Shown here: piece after piece, positions 18,360 to 35,752 of the stretch
How the letters are laid out: every line of letters starts with the position of its first letter
How positions within the stretch are numbered: position 1 is the stretch's first letter
Origin: Candidatus Dojkabacteria bacterium
GTDB lineage: Bacteria > Patescibacteriota > Dojkabacteria > B142 > JAFGFJ01
Direction: 5' to 3'
NCBI GenBank assembly: GCA_016931155.1
Contig: JAFGFJ010000006.1
Coordinates: 220,389 to 284,388, forward strand
DNA: 64,000 nt
The notes under the pieces: model-generated
What the model was told of the DNA's origin: nothing
What the model saw: only the letters and a program-made list of their open reading frames with translations
The model's database searches: none
Program-made: the position numbers and the translations under genes

Positions 18360-18437
18360 GGTGGCTGTAGCTCAGTTGGTTAGAGCTTCGGTTTGTGGAA
18401 CCGAGTGTCGTGGGTTCGAGTCCCACCAGCCACCCCA
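18360..18437 (+). tRNA. tRNA-His (anticodon GTG) with encoded G-1 and encoded CCA
   Basis: G-1 (18360) pairs with discriminator C. Acceptor GTGGCTG/CAGCCAC. Anticodon loop TTGTGGA. T-arm GTGGGTTCGAGTCCCAC. The 3' end is followed by CCA. Confidence 0.85.
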
Positions 18438-19919
18438 ATTTAGACTGCTACTCGTTTCAAAGATGCTATCAAAAGGCTTTTGCATTGTGTAGATTATCTT
18501 TCCAGCTTTATATGACAGGTTCTGAAGTGTAAGTTGAATAATTTCCCTTTTTTCTTCTGGTTCTGAACCTGTAAATAGCTCAAAACTCTTGGAAGCCAAT
18601 TCCAGTAAATAAGAAGCATTTATATAATATTCTTCATCTGCCTGTTCCAAGCGAGCTAATTTATCCTTAAATTCCTGCTGTTCCTGTCTAAAGCGTTTAC
18701 GCAAATTGTCATATTCTTCCTGAGTAATACTACCATCAAGCTTATCTATATAGAGCCTTTCTATTCTACCTTCGAGTTTCTTTATCTGGTTATTATATTC
18801 ATCGAACATTTCGGTATTGAAATTGATTTTACCTTCATGTGCTTCTTTGAGTGTACCAACCATATGCTGTAAATAAGTTTTGGGAATATGCATCTTCTTA
18901 TATATTTCAGAAAACTGCTTAGTAAGGCTCTTTTCTTCTATCCAGATGTCCTCGTGTTTTCCTCTCGCACCTGTGCAGTGATAGTAGATATAAGAATGGA
19001 TGTTCCCGTTTTTTTGCTTCTTGGTGTGTAATTCAGGGGTCATACTGCAACCACACTCTTTGCAGTATATTAAGCCCCTGTAGCTACCATGTTTACCTAC
19101 GAACTTACCTTTGCGATTATTTTTATATCGTCTATTTCTGACACTTTCACACATTTGCCAGACATCTTTAGTAACTAATGTCGCATACTTATGTGGACCG
19201 ATTTCACCATTTAGTTCCCGCATTCCATAATAGAAAGGGTTCTTAAGAATTTTTTCAACTTTACTTTTGTAAATATCTGCATTTATGTCTAACTTAAGTT
19301 TTTGTGATATTTGTAAATAAGAGTAAGAACCAGAGGAGTACCAATCAAATATTTTTTTAACAATCCCAGATTCAAAAGGAAGCACCATAACCCCTGCTTT
19401 TTTAGTATTTTCATCCCTGCAATTCTTATACCCATAGGGTACTCGACCATATACTTCATGAGTTCTTAATTTACTTTGTATAGTATTATGAGTATCTTCC
19501 TGACATCTATTAATATGTTGCTTTGCAAGAAACACTTTCATATCCCAGTCTACTATATCTCTTCCGAAGCTCTTTGAAGTAAGGACAAGCCTATCATCAA
19601 CAAAATGGAGTTCTTTATCAAAATCGATTCTTAGAGAGTCCATTTCAACTGCATCCCTGTAGTTTCTTGTTAATCTATCAACTCGAAAGCCTATGATGGC
19701 TTTTATTTCACTATCAGTCTTAATAAAATCAATCATTTCATCGAATTTCTTTCTCAGTTTCTGACTGGCAGTTTCCTGAAAAACAAACTCCTTTATTACT
19801 TCAAGGTTATTGTCCATGGCGTACTGTCTTAGCTTGGGCAACTGAATTTCCTCGATTGACAATCCCTGTTTTTGTTGTTCTGGGGTAGATACTCTAGCCA
19901 GAATTATTGCTTTTTTCAT
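18372..19919 (-). CDS. large serine recombinase (phage-type serine integrase); last ~22 codons of the ORF are antisense to tRNA-His
   Basis: Resolvase N-domain AIILARVSTPEQ (Ser nucleophile) ... RVDRLTRN. Recombinase domain. Zn-ribbon CKECGCSM...YYHC. Coiled-coil C-region. The ORF stop is supplied from inside the tRNA-His gene. Confidence 0.85.
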   Translation of the reverse strand: MKKAIILARVSTPEQQKQGLSIEEIQLPKLRQYAMDNNLEVIKEFVFQETASQKLRKKFDEMIDFIKTDSEIKAIIGFRVDRLTRNYRDAVEMDSLRIDFDKELHFVDDRLVLTSKSFGRDIVDWDMKVFLAKQHINRCQEDTHNTIQSKLRTHEVYGRVPYGYKNCRDENTKKAGVMVLPFESGIVKKIFDWYSSGSYSYLQISQKLKLDINADIYKSKVEKILKNPFYYGMRELNGEIGPHKYATLVTKDVWQMCESVRNRRYKNNRKGKFVGKHGSYRGLIYCKECGCSMTPELHTKKQKNGNIHSYIYYHCTGARGKHEDIWIEEKSLTKQFSEIYKKMHIPKTYLQHMVGTLKEAHEGKINFNTEMFDEYNNQIKKLEGRIERLYIDKLDGSITQEEYDNLRKRFRQEQQEFKDKLARLEQADEEYYINASYLLELASKSFELFTGSEPEEKREIIQLTLQNLSYKAGKIIYTMQKPFDSIFETSSSLNWGGWWDSNPRHSVPQTEALTN

Positions 19920-20319
19920 TTAAAAAATTTAATATTTTCTCTACAGAATCACTCAGACTCTTTTCAATTTCGCATTCCCAAATATACAAGGTATTCCATC
20001 CCTGTGACTCCAGAATTTCCTTTACTTTTTTATCTCTAGCAATATTGCTATCGAGTTTTGTATTCCAGAATTTTTTATTAGTTTTAGGTCTATAAGTATT
20101 GCTGCAACCATGTTGATGCCAGAAACAACCATGAACAAAAACCACACTCTTCTGCTTCAGAAATACAAGGTCAGGTTTACCAGTGAGTTTATATTTCAGT
20201 CTATATCGAAACCCTTTCCTGTGAAGTTCTTTTCTAATAAGTATTTCTGGCTTTGTATCATTGCCTGTTATTCTGGACATGTTCCAGCTTCTTCTTGTTT
20301 TCGTCAGTTTGTCTGTCAT
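19894..20319 (-). CDS. vsr: very-short-patch-repair (T:G mismatch) endonuclease Vsr
   Basis: DTKPEILIRKELHRKGFRYRL...KPDLVFLKQKSVVFVHGCFWHQH...LYIWECEI. Near-canonical Vsr signature. Confidence 0.9.
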   Translation of the reverse strand: MTDKLTKTRRSWNMSRITGNDTKPEILIRKELHRKGFRYRLKYKLTGKPDLVFLKQKSVVFVHGCFWHQHGCSNTYRPKTNKKFWNTKLDSNIARDKKVKEILESQGWNTLYIWECEIEKSLSDSVEKILNFLNEKSNNSG

Positions 20320-21497
20320 TATTTCTGTACATAATCAACGTATTTAATGAAAGTTCCGAGAGAGTAAATCTTTCTTTGATATTCTTTAGGGTAAGCAGAA
20401 ATATAATCTTTAGGGACAACCAGTTTTACATCGTTTTCGTACATCTCTTTCAATTGATTAGATGAGATACCCTGTTGTAAGGTGAACAGATGTTTAACTC
20501 TTATTCTGTCTGCCTCATTAAGAATCTGTCTCCATCTATCTTTACAGGTAGTTTTTGCAGCTAGAAATATGAGTTTGTCTGTCTTAAAACTGCCGTTTCT
20601 GTATGATTCTATATCTGGAAAAATAAAATCAGGTTTTTTATTCCCTTCAGTCACTGGTTGTTCGTCAAATTTTAATTCGAAGATATTGAACATTTTAGAT
20701 AGATGATGTTCAAGTGATTTCCCAGCCCTGCTTTTTCTTCTCTGTAAAACTGAATTTGCAGATTTTATGAAATCGTCAATACTTTTGAATGGGTTCTTTA
20801 TTAAAGGCGCATATCTATCATTTTCTATAGCTTTGAACAATTGATACTCTGTATCCAGCCATCTTAAAAGTTCTCTATCTGGCATCTTTTTTATCTCAGG
20901 AGTATTTATATTTTGTGCTTTGATAATAATTCCCCTTGCATTATCGGCAAGTTCCGTAGAGGTAGGAAAATCTACTTTTAAGGTTTCAATATAACTTTGG
21001 AATAAGTCTTCAAGTTTTGCATCAATATCTATAACATTACTCTTTGGTATTATCCTATTTGTTTCACTTGGACTTAAACCGAAAGCGCTTAAGAAATCTT
21101 CTGTATCATCATCTGAAGAGAGAACAAACGCTTCATAATAATCATCAGTAATTCTGCCTATAACTATAAGATTTCCTATATTATTCTCTTGCAGAAAAGG
21201 AAAATTTCTTCCAAATCTTGTCAACCTGTATTCATTTCTAGTTCCTGTCCCATAATAAATGAATCTGCTTTCTGTTTCGAAATCTCCTTGCCATTTAATT
21301 TTTACAAATTTATCTTTATTGCTTCCCTTGACACCTGCCTTATCGAAGAATAAAGGATAGGAATTTCTATGAAGGTAAAAGCCGCTTTGATGAGCCCCTG
21401 TGGCTACGGTGTCGTTAGCAGTAATGAACTTGGTAAATGCAATATCACTTTTATTAACAAGATTTATTGCGTTATTTACAAGATTATTTTCTGTCAT
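20319..21497 (-). CDS. EcoRII-family type IIE restriction endonuclease (expected specificity CCWGG-like)
   Basis: N-terminal effector block FITANDTVATGAHQSGFYL (EcoRII: LSANDTGATGGHQVGLYI). C-terminal catalytic region ANSVLQRRKSRAGKSLEHHL...TEGNKKPDFIFP...AAKTTCKDRWRQILNEADRI...HLFTLQQG is almost colinear with EcoRII. Confidence 0.85.
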   Translation of the reverse strand: MTENNLVNNAINLVNKSDIAFTKFITANDTVATGAHQSGFYLHRNSYPLFFDKAGVKGSNKDKFVKIKWQGDFETESRFIYYGTGTRNEYRLTRFGRNFPFLQENNIGNLIVIGRITDDYYEAFVLSSDDDTEDFLSAFGLSPSETNRIIPKSNVIDIDAKLEDLFQSYIETLKVDFPTSTELADNARGIIIKAQNINTPEIKKMPDRELLRWLDTEYQLFKAIENDRYAPLIKNPFKSIDDFIKSANSVLQRRKSRAGKSLEHHLSKMFNIFELKFDEQPVTEGNKKPDFIFPDIESYRNGSFKTDKLIFLAAKTTCKDRWRQILNEADRIRVKHLFTLQQGISSNQLKEMYENDVKLVVPKDYISAYPKEYQRKIYSLGTFIKYVDYVQK

Positions 21498-22717
21498 TAC
21501 AAGTATTTAATAACTGATTTTGCCAGATGTTCCATTAGTGGAACAACTACTGAGTTGCCAAACTGCTTATAGGCTTGAGTATCTGAAACAGGAATGATGA
21601 AATTTTCTGGAAAACCCTGCAGCCTTGCACATTCCCGTGGGGTTAATTTTCGTGGATTTTTACCTTCCTGTGGAATCAGTATTTCTGAACCATCCTTGTA
21701 ATATCTGGCACTAAGTGTTCTAGTTACCCCGTTAAAATCAGCGAGTCCAAAACCAAATCCATTGCCCTTTTCTCTATGTTTTTTTGCATAGCTTTGAAGA
21801 TATTCCCATAGCTTGTCTGAGAGAGTGTATTTTTCATCGATATCCTTATCCAGAATATCAGAGAGTTTAGTCTTATTTAGTGGTACTTCAGGGAAACTGA
21901 AATTTTCTTCATTATTAAAAATGTCATTATTGAAGGCTACTACTATCGTTCTTTCTCGATGTTGAGGGACAAAATGTTTGCCATCAAAAACCTGAAAGTA
22001 TGGTGTGTAGTTCAAATCAGTAAGAGTGTTAAGTATGACTTTAAAGGTATTTCCTTTATCGTGAGACATGAGGTTTTTTACATTCTCTAAAAAAAGTATT
22101 TTAGGTCTCTTTTCTTTTACAATTCTTGCTATATCAAAGAATAATGTTCCCTTTGTACCATCAAGAAATCCATGATTAACTCCCATGCTTATCTTTTTGG
22201 ATACACCAGCGATTGAAAAAGGTTGACATGGAAATCCTGCAAGTAAGATATCATGATCTGGAATATCTTTTTCATCAATCTTTGTAATGTCACCTGCAGG
22301 AGTTTCTTTGAAGTTTGCTTCGTAAGTTTTACAAGCATAAGTGTCAATTTCAGAAGAAAAGACAGAAATACCCCCCTGTTTTTCAAATCCGATTCTTATA
22401 CCGCCAATTCCTGCGAACAGGTCTATGAATTTGAACTTGCCTGTTTTCTTCTCAGGTTTAATATCGTTGGGAAATATACCTGAGTTATCAAAACCCAGTT
22501 GAGGTTCAATAAGTGTATCTATTCTTACATCAAGTGCATTTGCAATTCTGACTACAGTTTCTATAGTTGGATTATGTTGAACCCCGCTTTCCAGTTTTGT
22601 AATAGTAGAGTAGGTAACACCCGATCGTTCAGCCAGGTCTTTTTGGGTCAGACCTCGAATTTTTCTCTCCCTTTCTATCTTTAATGCTATGTTTGACATA
22701 TGTGTTAATAATTTCAT
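21497..22717 (-). CDS. DNA (cytosine-5)-methyltransferase (Dcm/M.EcoRII-like) with fused N-terminal XRE-type HTH domain
   Basis: HTH (LTQKDLAERSGVTYSTITKLESG). C5-MTase motifs FDLFAGIGGIRIGF (I), GFPCQPFS (IV), ENV (VI). TAATG overlap with the REase start. Confidence 0.9.
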   Translation of the reverse strand: MKLLTHMSNIALKIERERKIRGLTQKDLAERSGVTYSTITKLESGVQHNPTIETVVRIANALDVRIDTLIEPQLGFDNSGIFPNDIKPEKKTGKFKFIDLFAGIGGIRIGFEKQGGISVFSSEIDTYACKTYEANFKETPAGDITKIDEKDIPDHDILLAGFPCQPFSIAGVSKKISMGVNHGFLDGTKGTLFFDIARIVKEKRPKILFLENVKNLMSHDKGNTFKVILNTLTDLNYTPYFQVFDGKHFVPQHRERTIVVAFNNDIFNNEENFSFPEVPLNKTKLSDILDKDIDEKYTLSDKLWEYLQSYAKKHREKGNGFGFGLADFNGVTRTLSARYYKDGSEILIPQEGKNPRKLTPRECARLQGFPENFIIPVSDTQAYKQFGNSVVVPLMEHLAKSVIKYL

Positions 22718-22741
22718 TCTATTGATATATTATACCCAGTG

Positions 22742-23887
22742 TTAATTCATATCAAGTTTATTTAACTTAACTTTTTCAAACTTACTTAATTTACTTAGTA
22801 ACGACTTGAAAGGACTCTTTGTTTTACTTACAACAAGCTGTTTCATTTCCTTATTTAGTCTATACCAGCTTGTTTTTCCAAACCTGTCTGTCACCTTCCT
22901 AAACTTTCTAACACCTATTTCCTCAAGTGCTACTTTTGCTCCAAAATAGACGAGTAACTTTCTGTAGCCAAGCTTTGGATTATTCAGTTGCAGTTCGGTT
23001 AAGATTCCTTCAAATGTCTCAGTTTCAACCATTAGTAGCTTTGGATAAGAAGATTCTATCTCTTTAATTATAGCAAGTAGTAGCTTCTTAGATAGTTTTT
23101 TGCTGTAGAGGTCTGTAAAAATGAGCTGTTTATTCTTAAAGGAGTATTTTTCAAGCAATTGCTTCATCTTTCTTCTGCTTCCTATCCTTACTTCGACTCG
23201 TAGGACTTCGAAAGGCTTCTTTGACTGTGGTTGGTCAAATAAACTCAATTGTGTGTAGTTATCCTTCTCTATAGCACGTTTTTCAGATAGTTTTGCCTGT
23301 TTTAGGTCTTTTAACTTGTCGTATAGAATAACTTCAAAATCATTACTGTGATATTTAATTGAGTGACCTTCATTTCTGAAGTCTGTACTATTCATGTCTA
23401 ATAGTCTATTTACGTTTATTTTACTTACCTCTTTCAGGATGGAGTAGGGCGTAGAATAGTCTGTAAGTACAATATTCTTTGAATAATGGACAGTAGATAC
23501 ATCTGCATTTGCTAGAATTTGTATATCCTCGATCTTTACTCCCATAATAAACAGTAAATCCTTTAGTTTCCAGCATATTTCACCGAAGTCTGATTCTTCT
23601 ACTTCATCAAAGTTGTTTCCATGAAGCAGTTTGGGGATGGAGAACTCAACCTTGAGGAATATAGTAAAACCACCTCTTCTAAGAGCTTTAAATATGGTTA
23701 GACGGGGTAAGTAGCCATGTTGCTGTTTGTCTGCCTTCGTGGGGTTATTTGTAGCCTTAAAAGGTGCTCTGGCAGTGACTTTAATGAAGGGGGGTACAAA
23801 TAGGTTTTCTGTTGAAGGTGAAAACTTATTATGGTCTAGAATCTTGAAGTCTTTTTCTTCAATTGTCAGTGAAATTGTATCTATCAT
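22742..23887 (-). CDS. hypothetical protein, possibly a Rep_trans-type (rolling-circle) replication initiation factor
   Basis: 381 aa. Blocks such as EVILYDKLKDL and VRIGSRRK resemble the conserved G-S-R...Y-D-K region of phage/plasmid Rep_trans proteins. Not verifiable without a profile search. Confidence 0.3.
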   Translation of the reverse strand: MIDTISLTIEEKDFKILDHNKFSPSTENLFVPPFIKVTARAPFKATNNPTKADKQQHGYLPRLTIFKALRRGGFTIFLKVEFSIPKLLHGNNFDEVEESDFGEICWKLKDLLFIMGVKIEDIQILANADVSTVHYSKNIVLTDYSTPYSILKEVSKINVNRLLDMNSTDFRNEGHSIKYHSNDFEVILYDKLKDLKQAKLSEKRAIEKDNYTQLSLFDQPQSKKPFEVLRVEVRIGSRRKMKQLLEKYSFKNKQLIFTDLYSKKLSKKLLLAIIKEIESSYPKLLMVETETFEGILTELQLNNPKLGYRKLLVYFGAKVALEEIGVRKFRKVTDRFGKTSWYRLNKEMKQLVVSKTKSPFKSLLSKLSKFEKVKLNKLDMN

Positions 23888-24146
23888 TGTTCATTACGTT
23901 TTTTAAGTAATTATTTACTTCCTCCTCAATCAGGCTACCTGTCTGTTTGTTTATTGGATGAAAAAGATTCATATCCCTGTTCCCAATGTGTTTGGTAGGG
24001 TAAACAAGCCTGTAATCCCTATCGGGCTTGGTAAAGATAGCCACAGAACTGCAATAAATAGCTTCAAATAAGACAAAGCTACAAAACGCAATTAAGCCAT
24101 TGTTTGGTTTCACTGGAATTACTTGTATTTCACTTATTATTTTCAT
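23859..24146 (-). CDS. SpoVG-family nucleic-acid-binding protein
   Basis: 95 aa. IQVIPVKPNNGLIAFCSFVLFEAIYCSSVAIFTKPDRDYRLVYPTK...FHPINKQTGSLIEEEVNNYL matches the SpoVG pattern (V.P....GL.A.ASI.LD..F.VH.IRVI....G.FVA.PS......DIAHPIN...R..I...V...Y). Confidence 0.55.
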   Translation of the reverse strand: MKIISEIQVIPVKPNNGLIAFCSFVLFEAIYCSSVAIFTKPDRDYRLVYPTKHIGNRDMNLFHPINKQTGSLIEEEVNNYLKNVMNNDRYNFTDN

Positions 24147-24962: not shown

Positions 24963-24999
24963 TACGTCTTCGTTCTACTACTCTACAATAAGTTATGGA

Positions 25000-25731
25000 C
25001 TATTTACATTCTTCATCCTTGTTCTTATCAAGAATATAGTCCTTTATCTTCCAGTAATTATCTACTATTTTTTGATAGTTGTTAGCAAATATCTCCTGTA
25101 AATTACTGTCAGTTCTTAACTTTTCTTTAAGGTCTTGTAGATAGTTAATTAAATCAAAAAATAAGCAGAAGTTATTAACCAAAATCTCGTTCCTATGATA
25201 CCTTAAATGGCAATAACCTTTCCTGTTTTTTGCGATTTTGAAGTACTCAGATAGTTCCTCTAATGATTTAGGAGCATCGTGTTTTAAGTAATTAGACTGA
25301 AAGAACCACGACTCCTGTCTATCTTTCCTAGTTGCTCCTTTTCTTATAGTATCAATTATATGGGGTAGGGGACGGACATTATGGACTAGATCATGCCTAT
25401 AGACCTGCACAAGATAGCTCCTGTACCTTTTGTATTTTGAATTTACATATTTATCGTAAGGCATAAAGTCATTAAGTACTATTTTTATTCTTTCTGTTTG
25501 TTTTTTCCCTGTGTGAATATACATTAGAGAAGCAATGTGATCTGTAAAACAAAAAATATTCCTTGCTATAGTAAAAAGGCCTATTTGACTTTCTAATAAA
25601 GGGAAAATATCTCCTTTTAGTTGGTCTATTAAATCAGATACATATTCATAAGGTTGGAAACTTTTTCCTGGAAGAACGGCTAAATGAAATAGACCTTTAT
25701 CTTTGTTCACTACTGTAAGGTGTGTGGTCAT
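25000..25731 (-). CDS. hypothetical protein
   Basis: 243-aa ORF, first gene of the minus-strand string. No recognisable motif. Confidence 0.4.
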   Translation of the reverse strand: MTTHLTVVNKDKGLFHLAVLPGKSFQPYEYVSDLIDQLKGDIFPLLESQIGLFTIARNIFCFTDHIASLMYIHTGKKQTERIKIVLNDFMPYDKYVNSKYKRYRSYLVQVYRHDLVHNVRPLPHIIDTIRKGATRKDRQESWFFQSNYLKHDAPKSLEELSEYFKIAKNRKGYCHLRYHRNEILVNNFCLFFDLINYLQDLKEKLRTDSNLQEIFANNYQKIVDNYWKIKDYILDKNKDEECK

Positions 25732-25953
25732 GAAAAGGTGGAATAACTATAGAATTATACTCTAATGTACAAGCCTATAATTGAAGAGCAATGTTTTCCA
25801 TATATGAACTTTCTATGAGCCTTTTTATATTGTTTACGTTTATAGTAATCTCAGTAGATTGGTTCATGAACGAGTCTAATAAGTGACCCCACTACCAGGA
25901 AACTCGCCCTAAAAGACGCTTGCACTCCATAAATACTCGTGTTATTATCGATT

Positions 25954-27207
25954 ATGGTAATAAAAAGAGCAATCGAAAAAGAAATAGTCGAGCATCTCTC
26001 CTCACCAGAAATAACTCTCATAGTCGGGCCAAGGCAGGTTGGTAAAACTACATTGATAAATAAAATAGCCGAATCACTGAAGAACAAAGGGGAAAGTGTC
26101 TTTACACTCAACCTGGATATAGAAGATGATTTTGGTTTGCTTGAAAGTCAGTCAAGGCTTGTGAGTCAAATTGGACTCAATATAGGAAAGGATAAGGGAT
26201 ATGTATTCATAGATGAAGTGCAACGGAAAGAAGACGCAGGAAGGTTTTTCAAGGGAATTTATGACATGAAACTTCCTTACAAGTTTATCTTAACAGGTTC
26301 CGGAAGTGTAGAGTTAAAGGAAAAGGTTTCGGAATCGCTTACTGGGAGAAAAAAGATTTTTGAAATGAGGCCGATAAGTTTTTTCGAATTTATAGACTAC
26401 AAAACTCAATATCAGTATTCGGATAGATTGGCTTCCTTTTTCTCTCTCAAAGATCCAAGACTTGAACCTTTGTTTAATGAGTACATGCAGTTTGGCGGAT
26501 ATCCACGCGTTATGCTTGCGGACAGACTAGAGACAAAGCGTGCGGAAATGCAGGAAATATATAAAAGTTATCTAGAGAAGGACATTACGCAACTTCTGAA
26601 TATTCAAAAAGCAGAATCATTTAGCAAATTAATTACTTTACTATCAAGTCAGGCAGGTAAGCAGATAAATATAGAAGAATTAAGTACTACTCTCTCTCTC
26701 GATTCAAAAACAATAAAAAACTATTTGTGGTATTTAGAAAAGACTTACATAATAAAAGTCTGCAGACCGTATTTTACGAACCCAAGAAGCGAACTTGTTA
26801 AATCGTCAGTTTACTACTTTCTTGACCTTGGAATGAGTAACTATGCACTCAATAGATTTAGTAATTTTGATCTTACTTTACATGGAGGACAATTGTTCGA
26901 GAACTTTATATTTAACCACTTGATCAATAAATACTACAAAACTGATCCTACAATCAATTTCTGGAGAACAAAAGATGGAGCAGAAGTTGATTTTATCTTT
27001 AGGGTGGGAGCACAGGTAATACCGATCGAAGTAAAGTATAAGAAACTCTTAAAACCCACCGCAGGGCGCTCTTTGTATAATTATTTAGAAAAATACAAAT
27101 CTGCTGAAGCTCATATAGTAAACTTAACGCTGGATGAGGAAATAAAATCTAGGAAATCAAAACTCATATTCAGTAGTTATCCAAAATTTCTGTCTATGGA
27201 TATATAA
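25954..27207 (+). CDS. AAA+ ATPase of the AAA_14 / DUF4143 family
   Basis: Walker A GPRQVGKTTL, Walker B VFIDEVQ, and the typical ~400-aa architecture. The ATG at 25954 is preferred over the upstream GTG at 25939. Confidence 0.75.
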   Translation: MVIKRAIEKEIVEHLSSPEITLIVGPRQVGKTTLINKIAESLKNKGESVFTLNLDIEDDFGLLESQSRLVSQIGLNIGKDKGYVFIDEVQRKEDAGRFFKGIYDMKLPYKFILTGSGSVELKEKVSESLTGRKKIFEMRPISFFEFIDYKTQYQYSDRLASFFSLKDPRLEPLFNEYMQFGGYPRVMLADRLETKRAEMQEIYKSYLEKDITQLLNIQKAESFSKLITLLSSQAGKQINIEELSTTLSLDSKTIKNYLWYLEKTYIIKVCRPYFTNPRSELVKSSVYYFLDLGMSNYALNRFSNFDLTLHGGQLFENFIFNHLINKYYKTDPTINFWRTKDGAEVDFIFRVGAQVIPIEVKYKKLLKPTAGRSLYNYLEKYKSAEAHIVNLTLDEEIKSRKSKLIFSSYPKFLSMDI

Positions 27208-27210
27208 TAG

Positions 27211-27239
27211 TACCAAAATTCCTTCCACCAGCCACCCCA
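27211..27239 (+). repeat. att-like direct repeat copy A (TACCAAAATTCCTTCCACCAGCCACCCCA); last 15 nt identical to the 3' end of tRNA-His including CCA
   Basis: CCACCAGCCACCCCA at 27225-27239 equals 18423-18437. Lies 4 nt after the ATPase stop. Confidence 0.8.
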
Positions 27240-27404
27240 GACGCAATAAAACATAACAAACCTTCCAGAACGCTCTCCTGTTAATAGAATTCGAGGTTCG
27301 AATTTATAAAAAATCAAATATAAAAACACTTCTGTTAGTAATATTGCATTTAAAGACTGTTTAGAATATAATACGGAAGTGTATGTTATCTTAAGTAGTC
27401 AGAA

Positions 27405-28019
27405 ATGAGAAGAAAAACACTTTTTACAAATTTTATAAACACACCCTACTTTACAAAGCAGGATCTATTGGTTTTGGCTGATAAATTCAATATCTCTGAG
27501 ACAAGTATTAACACGTTAATTCAGAGATCTATCAAAAGCAAGGAAATCATCTCATTAAAAAGAAATTGTTATGTTAATAGAGAATTTTTTCTTAAGAATA
27601 GAGATAATCTAGAGTATAAGTTCTTTGTTGCCAATATATTGATAAAATCCTCGTATATTAGCCGAGAAACCGCTCTACAGTATTACGGACTACTTTCCGA
27701 AGCATCACTGAACTATTTTACTTCTACTACTATCAAGCTACCTAGAAAATTTGAGAAATCACTCGGTATTTTTGAATACAGAAATATTAAGGATGAACTT
27801 TTTAATGGATATAAGAGTGTAAGATTTTCGATTGGTGGAAATGAATATTCGTACCTAATAGCAGAACCCTACAAAGCAATATTTGATTATATATATTATC
27901 GTACAAGTAAAAGGTCAATATCTGAAGGATTACTTATGTCAGTAATGAATGAGCTCAGAATAAATTACCATGACCTTGAAAAGGATCAGCTAGATAAATT
28001 AATTAATTCTTTTAAATAA
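27405..28019 (+). CDS. AbiEi-like antitoxin / transcriptional regulator (type IV TA system), putative
   Basis: 204-aa protein immediately upstream of, and abutting, an AbiEii-type nucleotidyltransferase gene (stop at 28017-28019, ATG at 28020). N-terminal wHTH-like region. Assignment is mainly by synteny. Confidence 0.45.
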   Translation: MRRKTLFTNFINTPYFTKQDLLVLADKFNISETSINTLIQRSIKSKEIISLKRNCYVNREFFLKNRDNLEYKFFVANILIKSSYISRETALQYYGLLSEASLNYFTSTTIKLPRKFEKSLGIFEYRNIKDELFNGYKSVRFSIGGNEYSYLIAEPYKAIFDYIYYRTSKRSISEGLLMSVMNELRINYHDLEKDQLDKLINSFK

Positions 28020-29285
28020 ATGTTAATAGATAAATTAAAACTAAAATTTAAAGAACTTAAAGAGGAAGGTAAAACGGAAGATTCAATATTAATAGCCTTA
28101 AAGGAAATTTTGCAGCACTATATATTGAACTTCATTTACACAAGCAAAAATTATTCTTATTTGACAATGTATGGTGGGACTGTTTTAAGAATAGGATATA
28201 ACCTTCCTAGAATGTCTGAAGACTTAGATTTTCAGACACATAAGAAATTAGATTTAGAGAAATTTACCGAGGAAATAAAGAGGTATTTTAAGGATAATTA
28301 CGCATTTGATATAGAAGTAAAGCACAAAAGCTCACCAGAGAATAATACAAGCACATTATTTATAAAGTTCTTCACGTTAAAAGAACTAGGTTTTAAAAAA
28401 TTAAAGCTTGAAAGACTTCATGTCAAAGTAGATGTAAACTACTTTGAAACGGCAAATAAATTTGTAAACGATACTGTACCAGGTGGTAAAGGCACGGAGT
28501 TAGCCTATACAATTAAAACTTATCCCCTTTCTACTCTAATGGCGAGTAAGGCTGTTGCATTCCTAAAGAGAGATGCCAGAGGTATAGGTGATATTTTAAC
28601 GAATGTAAAATCAAGAGATGTATACGATATGATGTGGTATATGAATCGAGGAACTATGCCTGATTTGGAATATCTTAAAGCAAAAGATATAAGCTTTGAC
28701 ACATTTTTAGATTTTAGAGATAAAGTCAAGATTAGAGCAAACAAGATTGAAGACAACGCCTTTAGAAATGATTTATCTCAGTTCTTTTATGATAGAAATG
28801 AACTTGAAAACTGGCTATCTAGCTGGAGACCAAAATTTATGCAGTTATTAGATTCATATAAAGTATATGAAGTTGGGGAATTAGAGAGGATTTATGGGCA
28901 TGTAGATTTCAGTACAGATAATAGATCTATTTCTTATACATTTAATGCTTTAGACAATCAAAATCAGAATGTGATCTTTAGTGTGACACTTACAGATTAC
29001 TGGTTCGAGTTTAGAGATATAAAAATAAATAGAGGTCACAGAGTAGCAGAGATTGAAGATAAGGCTGAGAAAGGAAGAGGTGAAATGACTGAGTTAGACT
29101 ATGAGTATATTGGACTCTTCTACACAAAGATTAAAGATTACTTAAAGCGAAATAAGAACGTGGTTTTCCAGAATGAATTTGAAACTAAAGTAATACGGGC
29201 TTCAGCAGACAATTTAGATCCAAAAAAGCAGATTTATCTTGATAAAAGGCTTTTGGAGAAGATAGATTTTGAAGAATTATTGTGA
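28020..29285 (+). CDS. AbiEii-family nucleotidyltransferase toxin (DUF1814) with a long C-terminal extension
   Basis: LTMYGGTVLRIGYNLPRMSEDLDFQ matches the (K)GGTAL...R.SEDIDF signature of AbiEii/DUF1814. 421 aa versus ~300 aa typical. Confidence 0.6.
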   Translation: MLIDKLKLKFKELKEEGKTEDSILIALKEILQHYILNFIYTSKNYSYLTMYGGTVLRIGYNLPRMSEDLDFQTHKKLDLEKFTEEIKRYFKDNYAFDIEVKHKSSPENNTSTLFIKFFTLKELGFKKLKLERLHVKVDVNYFETANKFVNDTVPGGKGTELAYTIKTYPLSTLMASKAVAFLKRDARGIGDILTNVKSRDVYDMMWYMNRGTMPDLEYLKAKDISFDTFLDFRDKVKIRANKIEDNAFRNDLSQFFYDRNELENWLSSWRPKFMQLLDSYKVYEVGELERIYGHVDFSTDNRSISYTFNALDNQNQNVIFSVTLTDYWFEFRDIKINRGHRVAEIEDKAEKGRGEMTELDYEYIGLFYTKIKDYLKRNKNVVFQNEFETKVIRASADNLDPKKQIYLDKRLLEKIDFEELL

Positions 29286-29326
29286 ATATTAATGAACAAC
29301 TCTCAAGAGAATACGGTTTAACCAAC

Positions 29327-29349
29327 GTTCCAAAATTCCTTCCACCATT
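29327..29349 (+). repeat. att-like direct repeat copy C (GTTCCAAAATTCCTTCCACCATTA), degenerate
   Basis: Shares GTTCCAAAATTCCTTCCACCA with copies A and B. Sits 42 nt after the AbiEii stop. Confidence 0.6.
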
Positions 29350-29437
29350 AAGCCTAAATTTCCCTTTAGTTGTAGCAGAAGCTTTTCAATTTTACTGAGA
29401 ATTGATAATCTACTGATGAATATGTCGATCAAACAGA

Positions 29438-30598
29438 ATGAATGAAACTGAATCAGGTATAAAAATAAGTACGGCTGATTTCAGACTACTCCAACCCTAT
29501 TCAGACTATTTAACGAAAGCTGTGAGTCCTTTGTGGGGAGAAGTTTCTTCATCTAAACCTGGAGATTCGCTTTTCGAACTTGGGCGGATCGCGTTATCCA
29601 ATAAGGCTTTAGTCGAAGATATCCATGTTTCTCACTTGAGAGATACAATTATAGAGAATGAAGTCAATCCATACCTGGTCAAGTTAGTCTCCAATTTTGA
29701 CAAGTACAGTGAATTGATAGACAAGATCCAGAGAAAAAAAACTGACTTAACTTGGGATGATGAGCGACTTCATGAGGATGGATTACCTGAGAATCTTTTT
29801 GAAGAACACAGGGCATATCAGAAGGAACTGTATCATCCAACACCAGTATGCTTACGAGATTTACATATAGAGAGTTTGGACATTCTGTGTGAATATGAGG
29901 TTAATCCCAAATTAAGAAAATTTATCAATAAAATTGGTGGGATTGCTCTGTTCGAAGAACTAATTGCTCTTGCAACTAAGCAAGACTCTGTGGACTTGGA
30001 TAGAGTAGTCCCCTTTACTGACCTCGCCTACCAAGGACTAAATAAATGGTCAGTCCTATTAGAGCCTGTTTCGCCACCTCTTTTTTGTTTGCTCAGTAAA
30101 GATAATAGATTACTTCTGAAAGAACAGAATCCCAAGTTGCTAGAAATTCTTGAAAGATTTTTTCTACTAGAATTTGGACCTCATAATTCATCAGTGTATG
30201 TTGTTCCTTCGGTCGAAAATCCAACAGGATCTTTGTCAAGGGAGTACGAATTAGATTTATTATATTTAGAGCAACATAAAATGAAAGAAGAGGAATATAT
30301 TAACCTTCTTGGTGAATTATGTATGAGTTTTCATAAAGTTAAAGAAGGGACGCGAAGTTACACCTTTAAGGGAGTAGAATTTAGAAAATTGTCTATTTCT
30401 CATTATGATGAGAGATCCCCATTCACTGGGGAAATACCAGAACAGGAAGATTTTGATTTGGTTCTATACAAGGGAGGGAAAGAGGTTGGGGTAATTCCGA
30501 GTTGCTGGAAATACTTTGCGAGTGAGGGTATTTATGAGTCACCTGGTGCAAGATTCTCTTTTAGCCCTAGAAAGATTCTCCCCTTATTTGCTAAATGA
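29438..30598 (+). CDS. hypothetical protein (386 aa), single-gene module between two att-like repeats
   Basis: Good-length ORF. No motif recognised. Flanked by repeat C upstream and repeat B downstream. Confidence 0.45.
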   Translation: MNETESGIKISTADFRLLQPYSDYLTKAVSPLWGEVSSSKPGDSLFELGRIALSNKALVEDIHVSHLRDTIIENEVNPYLVKLVSNFDKYSELIDKIQRKKTDLTWDDERLHEDGLPENLFEEHRAYQKELYHPTPVCLRDLHIESLDILCEYEVNPKLRKFINKIGGIALFEELIALATKQDSVDLDRVVPFTDLAYQGLNKWSVLLEPVSPPLFCLLSKDNRLLLKEQNPKLLEILERFFLLEFGPHNSSVYVVPSVENPTGSLSREYELDLLYLEQHKMKEEEYINLLGELCMSFHKVKEGTRSYTFKGVEFRKLSISHYDERSPFTGEIPEQEDFDLVLYKGGKEVGVIPSCWKYFASEGIYESPGARFSFSPRKILPLFAK

Positions 30599-30616
30599 GA
30601 AGTTCAAGGGAAATAG

Positions 30617-30644
30617 TTCCAAAATTTCTCCCACCAGCCACCCC
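30617..30644 (+). repeat. att-like direct repeat copy B (GTTCCAAAATTTCTCCCACCAGCCACCCC); 16 nt identical to the tRNA-His 3' end
   Basis: TCCCACCAGCCACCCC at 30629-30644 equals 18421-18436. Lies 19 nt after the 386-aa gene stop. Confidence 0.8.
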
Positions 30645-30684
30645 GCAAAATTTCTAGGTCCATTATCAATAAAGGCCTTCTTGT

Positions 30685-31611
30685 TCATTTTGTTATTTGC
30701 TTCGAGTTCTGTAACATACTTTTTACTTTAGCGAGAGCAGAAGAATCGGATTTGCATTTGATAAGGTAACTATATGCTGAAAACAAATGAAAAATGTAAT
30801 ATCCTCGCACTTTTTCCATTGTTACTGGTACATTCATAATTTTTTCATATTGTTTAACAAAAGTGATGAAGTTCTCAGAAATGTCATAGAAATTAAACCA
30901 ATACATGATTATCCCCAGTTCTGCATGATTGTCTCCAATACGATGACTTTCAAAATCCAGTACAGCAGTTACATTAGTGTCCTTTACCAATATATTCTGA
31001 GGATTGTAATCCCAATGCAACGGGCATAACATCGGAAGTGAATTTGAGATTAAGCCAACTAATTCTTGAATTTTACTGTCAAAATATTTATGTGCATTTG
31101 AATCTATAATGCCCTGTCTTGTGAGTAACATTAGGTCTGGGCGCCATTTTTTTACTGCAGATATCCAGTCTGAATTGTTGTTGCATGGAGCATTCTCATT
31201 TTGCCATATCTCTTTGTTGGGTAGTTTGTGAAGTCCAGCAAGATTTCCAGCAATACTGTGAAGTAATTTCTTAGAGACAGTCTTATCAATTATTCTATAA
31301 TAGAAGGTCTCTCCTTCCAGGTACTCCTGGATTAACAAACTAAACTCAGTAGTAAAACAGAAATCAAGGAATAATGTTTTGGGAACAGGATACTTATATC
31401 GAATGAGCAAATCATCAATGTCGGTTGATCTTTTAATTCTCTCCTTGTAACTGATGGGAAAGATTTTACAGATGTACTTTTTGCCAGTACTTAATGCTGC
31501 AACTTTAAATACTTGACTTTTTGAGAGACCAGTATCGAATTTGTTTATTGAAAGGGGAGGCGAGGGGCTCTTCAAAAACTTACTAAAACCTTCAGTAATG
31601 ATATCTTCCAT
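30685..31611 (-). CDS. protein-kinase-like phosphotransferase (APH / choline-kinase fold)
   Basis: Brenner/catalytic-loop motif HWDYNPQNILV and DFE(S) in place of DFG. N-terminal ATP-binding lobe. 308 aa. Confidence 0.55.
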   Translation of the reverse strand: MEDIITEGFSKFLKSPSPPLSINKFDTGLSKSQVFKVAALSTGKKYICKIFPISYKERIKRSTDIDDLLIRYKYPVPKTLFLDFCFTTEFSLLIQEYLEGETFYYRIIDKTVSKKLLHSIAGNLAGLHKLPNKEIWQNENAPCNNNSDWISAVKKWRPDLMLLTRQGIIDSNAHKYFDSKIQELVGLISNSLPMLCPLHWDYNPQNILVKDTNVTAVLDFESHRIGDNHAELGIIMYWFNFYDISENFITFVKQYEKIMNVPVTMEKVRGYYIFHLFSAYSYLIKCKSDSSALAKVKSMLQNSKQITK

Positions 31612-31652
31612 AAACTATTATAGCGAATATTCTGTAGAGGAATGCAGGATTA

Positions 31653-31677
31653 GTTCCAAAACTCTTTCAAGGAGGGC
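31653..31677 (+). repeat. possible degenerate att-like repeat copy E (GTTCCAAAACTCTTTCAAGGAGGGC)
   Basis: About 17 of 23 positions match the repeat consensus. Sits just upstream of the kinase-like gene start. Confidence 0.3.
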
Positions 31678-31943
31678 TAAGGTTTATGAGAGTGGCAAGA
31701 TGACCCTAAAGTTCCGCAAACTTCACGAAATTCGTTCATAACACCTGTACCAAATTTGGGGGTCTTGACATACTTAAAGCCGAGGCTATAAAAAGCAATA
31801 CAAAACGTATATAATCAAATTATCAAAAGGGACTGCTTGATTGTTTTACCGACAAAACCTGATCATTACTGTCACAAAGTACCTAGACAAAATTTGTACC
31901 GAAAAACTGTGATTGATCCCTAGCTAACTCTTTAAAATGCTTT

Positions 31944-32519
31944 ATGGGTAAATATATTATTCCATTCTACTTCTTTTTCCTATTTATAACCGGAATACTC
32001 GTTGGTCCACAGATGGTCTTTTTGTTGGTCGGCTGGGTCGGTATATTTGCTTTCATTAAAATTAAAGGTTTTGATAGTGGTCTTCCTTCCAGATATGAAA
32101 AAGTATTTACTGCCACCGCATTGCTCTATCCACTTATAGAAACAGCAATAAAATTTGTAATTGAAAGGGATTTGATTCCTTATTCATGGATCTGGCTTAA
32201 TAGGATCGAACATTTTGGTTTCAGTGCTTTTCTTGTAATACTTATCTTTCCTGTTATTAGACGATTCTATATAAAGCTGGACTTGATCGGTCAGATAGTA
32301 TTTGTAGTTGGAATTATTGTGTTTCTTGGAAATATTAATGAATTTGTTGAATACCTGGTACGTTTAATGCTTAATCTTCGCTCAAAATTTGGACATTACT
32401 ATGAAGATACTATTATTGACTTGTTTGTAAATATGTTGGGAGCATTTGCGGGTTTTGGCCTGTTAAAACTTGTACTCGATAAAAAGAGAAAGAATAAGGA
32501 GAGAAATAATCTAAGATAA
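31944..32519 (+). CDS. hypothetical integral membrane protein (about 5 TM)
   Basis: 191-aa hydrophobic ORF with a basic C-terminal tail. Confidence 0.45.
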   Translation: MGKYIIPFYFFFLFITGILVGPQMVFLLVGWVGIFAFIKIKGFDSGLPSRYEKVFTATALLYPLIETAIKFVIERDLIPYSWIWLNRIEHFGFSAFLVILIFPVIRRFYIKLDLIGQIVFVVGIIVFLGNINEFVEYLVRLMLNLRSKFGHYYEDTIIDLFVNMLGAFAGFGLLKLVLDKKRKNKERNNLR

Positions 32520-33096
32520 TTTCTTTTAGAAGACCTATCAATTTAGGAGCATTTTTAAATGCGTAGTGGCGTGTGAGTTATTTTTGTCGTAATGCACTTT
32601 ATATTATTTTTTGAAGTAGCTTTGAAGTAGCTTTGAAGTAGCAAGTTATTCCATCAATAGAATATATCTTTAATGAAAGAAGGTGAGGAAACGCTTTTAC
32701 TATAAAAGTGTTTAAAGCTTGAATGTTTAGAGGTAGTGGGGGGAATGTATTGATATGGCAGTGTTTTGTATTATAATCACTCATACAATTCCAATTATAA
32801 TGCCATCGGAAGTTGATAGACAAAATAATACTGATGAAATAAGTGAATTCATGAATCAACGGGCGGGGGAGTTTTCTCATTTAGGTTCAGATCATACAAG
32901 AGAAGGATATATTCGCTTATCAGAAGATATGTTTATTGGTATATGTAGGTTATGTCCTGATTCACCAAAAATTCCTCCTGGAACTCTTCGTTATTTAGGG
33001 CAGGATTTAGGTAACAGCTGCTTAAGCAGTATTACCCATAGTGAAGAATTTTAGGCTAATAAACCTGAAAGCTATGATAGGATTGATATTTCTTAT

Positions 33097-33948
33097 GTGA
33101 GGAATGGAAATGGCTATTACTTTTTTTATAGGGGAGCTTTTCATGATGCTTATGACAGATATATTGAAGCTCAAGTGGTAACAATGGATACTTCTTCACC
33201 AATTACTCAGGAGGAGATGTTACATGCAGGAGAAGAAATTCTCAGAGAAAACGTATTGGATCTGGAGACAGTTGAGCCACATTTGGATAGAGCAGCAATA
33301 CTGGCAGTACACAGCTCGATAGTTTTAGATTCGATTTTGACGATGGCTGCAGTTGAAATGGGTGAGGAAGAATATTTGTATTGGCATGATAGAGCAAAAG
33401 AACAAACGGTGAAAGATGCTTTGGAGATAAGTGCAAAGAAAAGGGAGTCGCTTACTTTAATGGGGAAAAAGGTAAATGAAAGATTTATTTATCCATTTAT
33501 CACCAGAGAATACTTAGAAATTATATTGAATAACTTTCAAGAAATGTACATTGATTTAATGTTTTGCGGGAATATGAATCGAGAGAAGACAAGAGTTAGC
33601 GAGGATATGGCAAGTATGCTTGAGCTCGTATTGCTATCTTATGGTGAAGAACATAGAGGATTGCTACAGCAACTATTACATATTGAAGATGAGGTCAATG
33701 GGAAAATTGTTAATGTTGCGGATCAAGCAATAGAATTTGGCAAAAGATTGCTTCAATATGCCAAGGGAACCGCCCTTGAGGTAGCCATAGTAAGGCATCA
33801 TAAGCCTTTAACTAGACCACTAAAAGAACTTAGCTTAGACTACAAGATAGGGGACTTATGTGCAGTATCAGATATTGACAAGTTATCCAATTTGGGACTG
33901 CCTGCAATGTTAACCTTGAGAGATCTTAAAAGAATAGGTTCTTTATAA
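33097..33948 (+). CDS. hypothetical protein (GTG start)
   Basis: 283-aa ORF. No recognisable motif. Abuts the next gene. Confidence 0.4.
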   Translation: MRNGNGYYFFYRGAFHDAYDRYIEAQVVTMDTSSPITQEEMLHAGEEILRENVLDLETVEPHLDRAAILAVHSSIVLDSILTMAAVEMGEEEYLYWHDRAKEQTVKDALEISAKKRESLTLMGKKVNERFIYPFITREYLEIILNNFQEMYIDLMFCGNMNREKTRVSEDMASMLELVLLSYGEEHRGLLQQLLHIEDEVNGKIVNVADQAIEFGKRLLQYAKGTALEVAIVRHHKPLTRPLKELSLDYKIGDLCAVSDIDKLSNLGLPAMLTLRDLKRIGSL

Positions 33949-33957
33949 TTTCTTTTT

Positions 33958-35544
33958 ATGGTGAGTTCTATTTTGAAGGAAAAAGTAAGAATGATACTTA
34001 AGAACAAAATGCTTCTTATCTTAATCATATCTGCCCTGGTTTTAATTCCCCTTGTGACGGCAATCTCTGTTTATGCAATTTATAAGAATAATGAACGGAA
34101 ACAAAATAAAGAGAAGATTGAACAACAGGTATCACAAAATGAAACAACAAATGAGGAAGTAGAAGTGTTTACAGTACCTACTCCTCCCGGCATATGCGAA
34201 TTAGCAGTTAATAAGCTCTCAACAACAGTATCCCAAAAAATTGATGATAAAAGTAGAAAAGTATCAGTTGATTATTCATTTAAACAGGATGAGGAAGTCG
34301 ATTGTTTAGATCCAATAAAGGCCATGATAGATTCACTTACCTCCTTCAAGTATGATAACGGCTCTGAAGTGAATTTCCCGGGACCGGAAATAACGAAAGA
34401 TAAGATAATATTTGACCTATCAGAAGTGAAAAAACTTGGTAAAGGCAAGCTTTATTGGTTAGTTCAGTATGATGACAATTCGAATTCAATCGAAATTGGA
34501 AGCGTGGAAATTTTGGGTGCTGAGATCAGACAACCAACTACTACACCGACACCAACAACTGCACCATCATTAACAAAGGTGAAATACGAAGTTAAGGTTT
34601 TGTCGCTTTCATATTTCCCGATAAAGGAGGGGAAACTTGATACTACTATCTTGAATAATTCCTGGGGTGAGTACAATATGACGCTAGCACAAGTAAGACA
34701 AAAAGTTAGTGCAACTCAAAGCGAACTTATTTCTACTTTGGAAGAGGGCAGTAGATATAGGGCATATAAAGATGTTTCTGCTCCAATTGTAGTGGACTAC
34801 AATATACATAGTGCCAAAGAATATCTTGCCGCTGTACCTATTTCTACAAAGCCTAATCCATGGGATGGAAGTGTGTACATGACTGACTACAGGAAAATTC
34901 TTGAGGATCACGGGATATGCAACCTTGTTGAAAATCAGGGGGTTAAAGAGGTGTGGCTTTGGAGTTATACAGGTATTGGAAAATCCGGATGGGAATCCAA
35001 CTTTGCAGGGAAGAATGGCAGAGATATAAGTAATAGTGACAGAGATCCAGGTGATATGCCTATATGTGGGAAGAGCTACACAGTATACGAGTATAATTAC
35101 GGACGTGGTACCTCAGAAGCAACCGAAGATCACATGCATCAGTTTGAAGCAATATTTAATTTCGTAGATAGTAACCTGTTTTGGAATAAATTTGTGGGGT
35201 ATCACCCTTCAAATGGATCATATTCAGGGGATTCCAATAGAAGATGTGGATGGGCTCATTATCCGCCAAATGGAAGGCATGATTACGATTGGACTAATCA
35301 GAATTATGTTCAAAGCGATTGTATGGACTGGAATCCGGACTCTTTAGGTAAAACAACAACAATGAATTGCTCCAGGTGGAATTGTGATAGCAGAAGATTT
35401 TTCATATTCTGGATGCAAAGCCTGCCGGGTTATGGAAATACTATTACTTACCAGGGCAAGCAATTTAAGAATTGGTGGGGCTTCATTGCAGATTTTGATA
35501 ATGAAATGAATAAAGGACAAAGCCTAACGTTCCAGCAGAATTAA
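33958..35544 (+). CDS. secreted/membrane-anchored hypothetical protein (528 aa) rich in Trp/Asn/Cys in the C-terminal region
   Basis: N-terminal TM (MLLILIISALVLIPLVTAISVYAIY). PTTTPTPTT linker. C-terminal Trp/Cys-rich domain. Confidence 0.5.
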   Translation: MVSSILKEKVRMILKNKMLLILIISALVLIPLVTAISVYAIYKNNERKQNKEKIEQQVSQNETTNEEVEVFTVPTPPGICELAVNKLSTTVSQKIDDKSRKVSVDYSFKQDEEVDCLDPIKAMIDSLTSFKYDNGSEVNFPGPEITKDKIIFDLSEVKKLGKGKLYWLVQYDDNSNSIEIGSVEILGAEIRQPTTTPTPTTAPSLTKVKYEVKVLSLSYFPIKEGKLDTTILNNSWGEYNMTLAQVRQKVSATQSELISTLEEGSRYRAYKDVSAPIVVDYNIHSAKEYLAAVPISTKPNPWDGSVYMTDYRKILEDHGICNLVENQGVKEVWLWSYTGIGKSGWESNFAGKNGRDISNSDRDPGDMPICGKSYTVYEYNYGRGTSEATEDHMHQFEAIFNFVDSNLFWNKFVGYHPSNGSYSGDSNRRCGWAHYPPNGRHDYDWTNQNYVQSDCMDWNPDSLGKTTTMNCSRWNCDSRRFFIFWMQSLPGYGNTITYQGKQFKNWWGFIADFDNEMNKGQSLTFQQN

Positions 35545-35563
35545 TAGGTTTGTGTACAAATTT

Positions 35564-35613: not shown

Positions 35614-35618
35614 ATTGA

Positions 35619-35647
35619 TTTCCAAAATTCTTCCCACCATCCGCCCG
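35619..35647 (+). repeat. att-like direct repeat copy D (TTTCCAAAATTCTTCCCACCATCCGCCCG), degenerate
   Basis: Shares TTCCAAAATTCTTCCCACCA with copies A, B and C. The 3' part has diverged from the tRNA-His sequence. Confidence 0.55.
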
Positions 35648-35752
35648 ATTTATAATAGCTTCCAGTTGGGATGTTGAGTGAAATATTTTGATTATTAATC
35701 TTTCCATTATTTTATCTTATTGCTAAGCTTTGGCAGAAATTATTACTGAATT

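Follow-up and report, generated by a model that had tools for sequence, protein, structure and literature searches.

The subject of this study is a single orphan gene that lies between two short repeats in a stretch of Candidatus Dojkabacteria DNA of 64,000 nucleotides, referred to below as the window (assembly GCA_016931155.1, contig JAFGFJ010000006.1, positions 220,389 to 284,388). Our analysis suggests that the orphan is cargo of a recombinase-less segment in a composite island made by repeated site-specific integration into a tRNA-His gene at its 3′ end, and we consider this reading likely. The 17-kb stretch 18438-35648 as a whole is most likely a stack of tRNA-His-targeted insertions, comprising a complete element that encodes a large serine recombinase (LSR) and three units that encode none. 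The order along the island is tRNA-His, complete element, repeat A, AbiEi/AbiEii, repeat C, orphan, repeat B, a minus-strand APH-family gene with three further genes, repeat D and then the chromosome (Table 1). If this reading is right, the puzzle of a repeat-bounded cassette is explained as ordinary island biology, that is, by insertions stacking at a tRNA gene.

Repeats flanking the orphan gene

The original prediction placed an open reading frame (ORF) of 386 codons between two recombination-site-like repeats, here called C and B, and this arrangement is present as described. Repeat B is a full copy, whereas repeat C is only a partial one and stops short of position 29355, to which it had been extended. 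Both belong to a direct-repeat family of ~30 nt with four plus-strand copies, which start at 27206 (A), 29323 (C), 30612 (B) and 35615 (D). With up to 3 mismatches allowed, the 20-nt core pattern TTCCAAAATTCCTTCCACCA matches at 27211, 29328, 30617 and 35620 and nowhere else in the 64 kb, always on the plus strand, against 0.02 matches expected from dinucleotide-preserving shuffles.

The composition of the repeats points to their source. A 5′ arm of ~15 nt that is not derived from the tRNA is common to all four copies (AGTTCCAAAATTYYT; consensus A/T-G/T-T-A/T-CCAAAATTYYT), and the 3′ half corresponds to the terminal 16-17 nt of the intact tRNA-His gene, with identity to the tRNA starting at the last base of the T-loop. 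The tRNA-His gene terminates ...GGGTTCGAGTCCCACCAGCCACCCCA, and close matches to its 3′ 17-mer, TCCCACCAGCCACCCCA, lie at 27223 and 30629 (1 mismatch each) and at 35632 (3 mismatches), where 0.04 occurrences are expected. Since each repeat joins the shared arm to a tRNA-derived 3′ half, the structure is that of an attR-type junction; judged by sequence, the repeats are an element arm plus the displaced tRNA 3′ end, as would be left by integration into the 3′ end of the tRNA gene. The recombination-site-like character first ascribed to them is therefore upheld in a specific form, namely copies of the tRNA-His 3′ end with a conserved element arm, and this combination is the signature of repeated site-specific integration by the adjacent LSR.

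Repeat C departs from this scheme in one respect. Its partial copy of the tRNA end covers only 29340-29347, which is why the 17-nt tRNA-end search missed it, and beyond these eight core bases the next 9 positions match the tRNA end at 4 of 9. A deletion endpoint is probably a better explanation of this sequence than point decay, with the reservation that truncation by itself is no proof. If repeat C is such an endpoint, the left boundary of the orphan unit would be a scar and not a functional site.

We also considered the repeat as a conserved small ORF and rejected it: the differences between A and B are spaced at every third base, yet the surrounding frames differ among the copies on both strands, so that no peptide is conserved. 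In the antisense frame of the LSR, the differences between A and B are non-synonymous. An Rfam scan of the window returned 7 tRNAs and no other RNA. The repeat pattern had 13 matches in a collection of genome contigs that does not hold the source genome, all in unrelated coding sequence and without extended similarity, and 32 chance matches in viral contigs; the matches from both collections are 18-25 nt long, do not extend past the pattern and reveal nothing related to the repeat. Guide-RNA ends of the TnpB/IS200 type, which the ~420-aa ORFs before the repeats had brought to mind, were discarded, as those ORFs are the DUF4143 ATPase and AbiEii.

Table 1. Features of the island and its surroundings, in window coordinates
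Feature	Position	Strand	Remarks
tRNA-His (GTG), intact	18361..18437	+	ARAGORN, Rfam; putative integration target
LSR, 515 aa	18372..19919	-	Resolvase PF00239, Recombinase PF07508, Zn_ribbon_recom PF13408; N-terminus MKKAIILARVSTPEQ
Complete element	18438-27239		LSR, restriction-modification (R-M) module, backbone, two genes without assigned function, PDC-S01 ATPase
R-M module: Vsr, EcoRII endonuclease, HTH-Dcm methylase	19894..22717	-	Pfam
Backbone: 381-aa protein of no known family and 95-aa protein	22742..24146	-	54% / 58% identity to L018 counterparts
AAA_14/DUF4143 ATPase (PADLOC candidate defence family PDC-S01)	25939..27207	+	Last gene of complete element
Repeat A	27206..27239	+	Arm AATAGTACCAAAATTCCT and tRNA-His 3′ end copy, 1 mismatch/17; right junction of complete element
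Unit 2: AbiEi antitoxin and AbiEii toxin	27405..29285	+	Domain/PADLOC matches
Repeat C	29323..29347	+	Arm, 0 mismatches/20-nt pattern, and first 8 nt of tRNA part (TTCCACCA), then unrelated; left boundary of orphan unit
Orphan unit (unit 3)	~29348-30645		One ORF between repeats C and B
Orphan gene, 386 aa	29438..30598	+	ATG start; NCBI JW796_02710, Candidatus Dojkabacteria; very rare family
Repeat B	30612..30645	+	Arm and tRNA-His 3′ end copy, 1 mismatch/17; right boundary of orphan unit
Unit 4	30685..35544		APH-family kinase (-); 191-aa strongly hydrophobic ORF; 283-aa protein; 528-aa protein with hydrophobic N-terminal segment
Repeat D	35615..35648	+	Arm, 2 mismatches/20, and decayed tRNA-His 3′ end, 3 mismatches/17; outermost junction
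Sequence right of the inferred right end of the island			...ATTTATAATAGCTTCC, then 148-aa and Na/Ca-exchanger genes
Chromosomal genes past repeat D			148-aa protein, Na/Ca exchanger, DUF11 surface protein, CarD, DEAD helicase

The recombinase and its element family

The LSR has the resolvase catalytic domain, the recombinase domain, the zinc ribbon and the ~500-aa size of large serine integrases. It is the sole recombinase seen: a scan of ORFs from 12.5 to 47 kb found no tyrosine recombinase (Phage_integrase), and units 2-4 contain no recombinase domains. The LSR ORF extends 66 nt into tRNA-His, its last 22 codons being antisense to the tRNA gene. This overlap puts the attachment site within the 3′-terminal part of the recombinase gene, so that the C-terminal ~20 residues of the protein must differ between the integrated and the excised form. 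With the arm of repeat A, the excised LSR would terminate ...NWGGWWKEFWYYYISIDRNFG, directly before its stop codon.

The association between this recombinase and tRNA-His recurs in related elements from other samples. At E<=1e-30 the LSR family comprises 649 homologues, whose named sources are mostly Patescibacteria/candidate phyla radiation (CPR) groups; a search of viral contigs for the LSR found no relatives. We inspected the context of eight distinct homologues from other metagenomes, with 57-70% identity to the LSR of the window, and in seven of them tRNA-His adjoins or overlaps the 3′ end of the recombinase gene in convergent orientation (L018, L069, L073, L076, L077, L078-81). An overlap of 66 nt occurs in several homologues as well (L069, L077, L078-L081). 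The exception, L072, carries a tRNA-His-3′-like fragment at the end of its LSR and a second one past the far end of the element (1240-1300, ...CTGACCCCA), followed by a truncated second serine recombinase (428-1255, 275 aa, 25% identity to the LSR of the window). By its sequence layout, L072 appears to be a tandem accretion in which recombinase debris is still visible. At two of these loci the sequence on the far side of the tRNA differs. L078 (5825-9143) has the recombinase P0022 and tRNA-His followed by a ~2.9-kb block encoding EamA, a flavokinase and a 255-aa protein, and L081 (1622-1943) has an LSR identical to P0022 and tRNA-His followed directly by a GIY-YIG gene. The comparison suggests that variation extends upstream of the tRNA as well.

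The element carried at L018 has the backbone of the window element and other R-M cargo, a type ISP gene standing in place of Vsr/EcoRII/Dcm. The 112-aa L018 counterpart of the 95-aa backbone protein has a Pfam match to SpoVG, a match that the 95-aa protein itself lacks. More generally, the complete LSR elements (window 18438-27239, L018, L072, L073 and L077) have a common backbone of a ~380-aa protein without known family and a small protein related to one that matches SpoVG, with DUF3800 in some of them, and the R-M system beside the LSR differs from element to element, being EcoRII/Dcm/Vsr, type ISP, type III, type I or ApaLI-like. The position beside the LSR therefore looks like a swappable slot for defence genes. 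Because the backbone is common to L018 and the window and the R-M cargo is different, the comparison argues that the LSR element is a real mobile family with interchangeable defence cargo.

Our work delineates an apparently undescribed family of LSR-using, tRNA-His-targeting integrative elements; our searches of the full-text literature found no such description. In CPR bacteria, whose genomes are tiny, few mobile elements have been characterised, and for this reason a defined attachment site and recombinase would help to follow gene flow among them and might serve as an integration tool.

Proposed accretion at tRNA-His and competing explanations

The locus displays what tandem accretion is recognised by, namely an intact tRNA gene followed downstream by same-strand repeats of its 3′ end, and a recombinase at the target end whose association with the tRNA is conserved in relatives. 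In the history that we propose, an integrating element would replace the terminal ~17 nt of the tRNA with its own copy, the displaced end coming to lie at the far side of the insert, fused to the arm. The regenerated tRNA-His would be targetable again, and newer elements would push older ones outward, leaving the newest nearest the tRNA. The units beyond repeat A would then have lost recombinase and backbone through deletion, repeat C being one such deletion endpoint, and what remains of each older element would be its arm-proximal cargo: AbiE, then the orphan, then the APH gene with its three companions. The 1.3-kb orphan unit is bounded by attachment-site copies, of which the left one is truncated, and has no recombinase domain and no remnant of LSR or backbone, as is characteristic of a cis-mobilizable element (CIME). 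We favour the view that it is the remnant of a larger element after deletion over its independent capture. CIME-like units of this kind could still move in cis if the resident LSR were to pair the tRNA junction with a distal repeat.

The closest precedent is found in the ssrA islands of Dehalococcoides (McMurdie et al., 2011, PMC3146451). There, a serine recombinase of ~540 aa is encoded on the reverse strand adjoining attL. Direct repeats of 20 bp that match the ssrA 3′ end delimit islands arranged in tandem, and each of these repeats is directly preceded by a conserved motif of 15 bp that does not belong to ssrA. Insertion is inferred to occur in or at the T-loop, and 15 islands that lack an integration module were read as possible cis-mobilizable elements (PMC3146451). 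The present island shares the reverse-strand LSR beside the target RNA gene, the tandem 3′-end repeats, the arm of ~15 nt and the recombinase-less units. It differs in its target (tRNA-His and not tmRNA) and in its host (CPR, Dojkabacteria); a second, DsiA-like small serine recombinase and the other five integration-module genes are not seen here, the backbone consists of the 381-aa protein and a small SpoVG-related protein, and the cargo is made up of defence genes, not dehalogenases.

Two further systems follow the same logic. CIMEs and tandem accretion are described for streptococcal arrays of integrative conjugative or mobilizable elements (Pavlovic 2004 and Bellanger 2011, as summarised in PMC5704250, where both terms are defined). 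As with streptococcal CIMEs, the orphan unit and a complete element occupy the 3′ end of one target gene in tandem (PMC5704250). The streptococcal elements are conjugative elements or mobilizable ones, most of them with a tyrosine integrase, whereas no conjugation or mobilisation genes were identified in the present island. The tycheposons of Prochlorococcus are tRNA-targeted, carry variable cargo and push older elements inward, their islands contain scattered partial tRNAs and degraded remnants, and a minority have large serine recombinases (Hackl et al., bioRxiv 10.1101/2020.12.28.424599). Unlike the present island, they belong to another host phylum and have another backbone, and the majority have tyrosine recombinases and replication modules.

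The array layout is reproduced by a different assembler: the Logan assembly of run SRR13394437 is 100% identical across window positions 25753-38993, though it probably derives from the same read set as the metagenome-assembled genome. In a 9-kb tblastn search, the antisense translation of 35547-35657, which overlaps repeat D, showed a weak similarity of 37 aa to residues 431-467 of the LSR (E 0.006); the match is probably chance, or alternatively the last trace of the end of an old recombinase gene.

Several observations weigh against an origin of the orphan unit by accretion and decay. The GC content of unit 3 (0.371) equals that of the host flanks (0.369-0.378), so that composition gives no independent sign of foreign origin; the AbiE unit stands at 0.304. 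Searches with tblastn found no convincing pseudogene remnant of LSR or backbone in units 2-4, and without such debris the remnant model needs clean deletions that begin at or inside the junctions. No excision product, empty site or strain without the unit was observed, in a scanned genome collection that held neither the source genome nor close relatives. The related loci that we fetched contain no second 17-nt copy of the tRNA end within range (<=4 mismatches), which means that a long duplicated core and an array of several units are documented so far in this genome alone. Finally, the reconstructed attP has no clear dyad symmetry.

The strongest competitor, which we nevertheless regard as unlikely, is true cassette capture, in which a 1.3-kb circle with an attP-like site was inserted in trans by the resident LSR, making the locus an integron-like platform run by a serine recombinase. 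The uniform ends of the units fit such a process. In all four, the stop codon of a plus-strand gene comes 0-70 nt before the arm (stop/repeat start 27207/27206, 29285/29323, 30598/30612 and 35544/35615, for the DUF4143/AAA_14 ATPase, AbiEii, the orphan and the 528-aa protein without family match, respectively), and the units are compact and free of recombinase or backbone debris. LSR attachment sites measure 40-50 bp, most of which the arm and the tRNA-like 17 nt would supply. The boundaries of the orphan unit argue the other way, since repeat C lacks the tRNA-like half past its first 8 nt and, were it the unit's own half-site, its integration would have destroyed tRNA-His. Moreover, no circular form came to light, the four genes of unit 4 do not share one orientation, and known precedents treat such units as decayed elements (PMC5704250). 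A check suggested with the captured-cassette idea was to look for the same gene in different repeat-flanked contexts, and none appeared in the viral contigs or on the contigs of the homologues. Taken to its most general form, at a shade lower probability still, the idea would make tRNA-His with its resident LSR a capture platform of CPR bacteria, at which mini-circles of one or a few genes, each with no more than the ~15-nt arm and a tRNA-like half-site, would be inserted in trans and shuffled, the orphan being one captured effector. Were this true, the platform would be the counterpart of an integron, run by a serine recombinase, and would supply bacteria of small genome size with defence genes.

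Local amplification, which would have duplicated the junction within one island by unequal crossing-over or slippage with later shuffling of genes and no separate integrations, appears improbable to us. In its favour, the copies are few, lie within 8.5 kb and share one orientation, and repeats A and B are 91% identical, a match that spans 6 nt upstream of the arm. Unequal crossing-over would, however, also duplicate the intervening genes, and the sequences between the copies are unrelated to each other, with distinct gene content and GC contents of 0.30-0.37.

Less probable again, and hard to sustain, is the proposal that the repeats are a regulatory or terminator motif, or a product of chance, and the orphan an ordinary chromosomal gene. 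The copies are indeed intergenic and downstream of genes, and three of the four lie 90-170 nt upstream of the next plus-strand gene. Identity to the tRNA-His 3′ end over 16-17 nt is, on the other hand, not expected of a terminator or an operator, the repeats form no stable hairpin, and the 64 kb hold no further copies. Promoter and terminator scans showed no enrichment over shuffles, and no plus-strand terminator-like site was found in the region. The outcome that would have refuted the original prediction, a conserved core gene without flanking repeats, was not seen: the gene is extremely rare and not core.

The integron-like form of capture that the original prediction implied is not supported. 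The locus shares with integron cassettes an array in which a recombination-site-like repeat comes after a single ORF. When 91-nt windows around all four repeats were folded as single-stranded DNA, no attC-type hairpin appeared; minimum free energies ran from -1.7 to -5.4 kcal/mol, with z-scores of -0.37 to +0.92 relative to shuffles, and what is conserved among the copies lies in their sequence, not in their structure. In contrast to integron cassettes, there is neither attC secondary structure nor IntI, the repeat is a tRNA end with an arm, and unit 4 has mixed orientation. Two defining integron features, attC and IntI, were thus looked for and not found, and the array would work like an ssrA island or a CIME array, not like an integron cassette. 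A classical integron cassette array or an integrase-less attC cluster (CALIN) is accordingly of negligible probability, its superficial ORF-then-repeat pattern being outweighed by the missing attC-type imperfect palindrome, the lack of a tyrosine recombinase among the nearby ORFs scanned and the tRNA origin of the repeats.

The orphan protein and neighbouring sequences

The orphan was originally described as having no recognisable family. This holds for Pfam, NCBIfam, PADLOC and PHROGs, in which the protein has no match, and falls short of a strict ORFan, since an exhaustive HMMER search of 1.84 billion representative proteins recovered four distant homologues (E 4e-12 to 1e-7). These are 32-35% identical to the orphan across its C-terminal ~170 residues. 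Three of the four are ~410 aa long, and the fourth is a partial protein of 1146 aa from an Omnitrophica genome (L002, contig VGKN01000233.1) with extra N- and C-terminal regions. In this protein, a 270-aa N-terminal extension precedes the ~410-aa module, and the C-terminal region after the module is weakly aminotransferase class I/II-like; this architecture may hint at function or result from a fusion in gene calling. Word-index searches of a collection of 5.8 billion protein clusters retrieved only the orphan itself (JW796_02710, a hypothetical protein encoded on a contig of 559,650 bp) with the single sequence as query, and the orphan and P0004 with the family profile.

The orphan belongs to a genuine, very rare and patchily distributed gene family, whose five members are spread across the unrelated phyla Dojkabacteria and Omnitrophota. 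Their alignment has 28 invariant columns, which include H322, Y323, P328, F329, E337, D340, I353-P354-S355, W357, F373, F375, P377, L381 and P382 and give the C-terminal domain the pattern H-Y-D..PF..E..D...IPSxW...FxFxP..LP. The contigs of the four homologues (1.4-5.3 kb) show no tRNA, repeat copy or common neighbour. No relatives of the family were found in viral contigs, no tblastn match to the orphan protein in plasmid and phage collections, and no PADLOC match to its homologues.

Structure prediction gave a partial picture. A single-sequence AlphaFold2 model was unusable, with a predicted local distance difference test (pLDDT) score of 38, and modelling on the five-sequence alignment raised the mean pLDDT to 53, with values of 60-92 across residues ~214-386. 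The protein is soluble, and in this model its N-terminal two-thirds are poorly modelled and mostly helical; the C-terminal domain (~214-386), modelled with moderate confidence, has helices followed by a small beta-sheet. No significant match to the model was found by Foldseek in the PDB (best E 0.56) or in BFVD (best E 0.077), and a profile search of the PDB gave a best E of 0.008, with targets inconsistent with one another and none significant. Remote homology and fold comparison, proposed with the original prediction as a way to place the gene, therefore yielded the four distant homologues and no significant fold.

The single-gene unit lies in a defence-rich region, with EcoRII/Dcm/Vsr, the PDC-S01 ATPase and AbiEi/AbiEii nearby. 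Guilt by association with these R-M, PDC-S01 and AbiE neighbours prompts the tentative guess that the orphan could be a stand-alone defence or accessory protein, a possibility to which we give rather less than even weight. The protein may in this sense reasonably be counted among the candidates for a new function in defence or in an accessory role.

In the neighbouring units, the AbiEii homologue (28020-29285) has 421 aa, and its Pfam match stops at about residue 271, followed by an uncharacterised C-terminal extension of ~150 residues. The 191-aa, 283-aa and 528-aa proteins of unit 4 had no family match in library scans. A separate 50-nt repeat family occurs at 6785-6834, 35561-35610 and 40209-40258 and consists of a promoter-like box, TAGTATAAT, followed by a short hairpin; the copy at 35561-35610 ends 5 nt left of repeat D, and past the copy at 6785, near 6880, lies a stretch, CCAACCCGCCCCA, that vaguely resembles the tRNA-His 3′ end. 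On the chromosomal side, positions 38953-39084 hold a tandem array of the hexanucleotides CCAACG/CCAACA within a 904-aa ORF with DUF11 domains; reading of the repeat gives a Pro-Thr run, which looks like a surface-protein linker.

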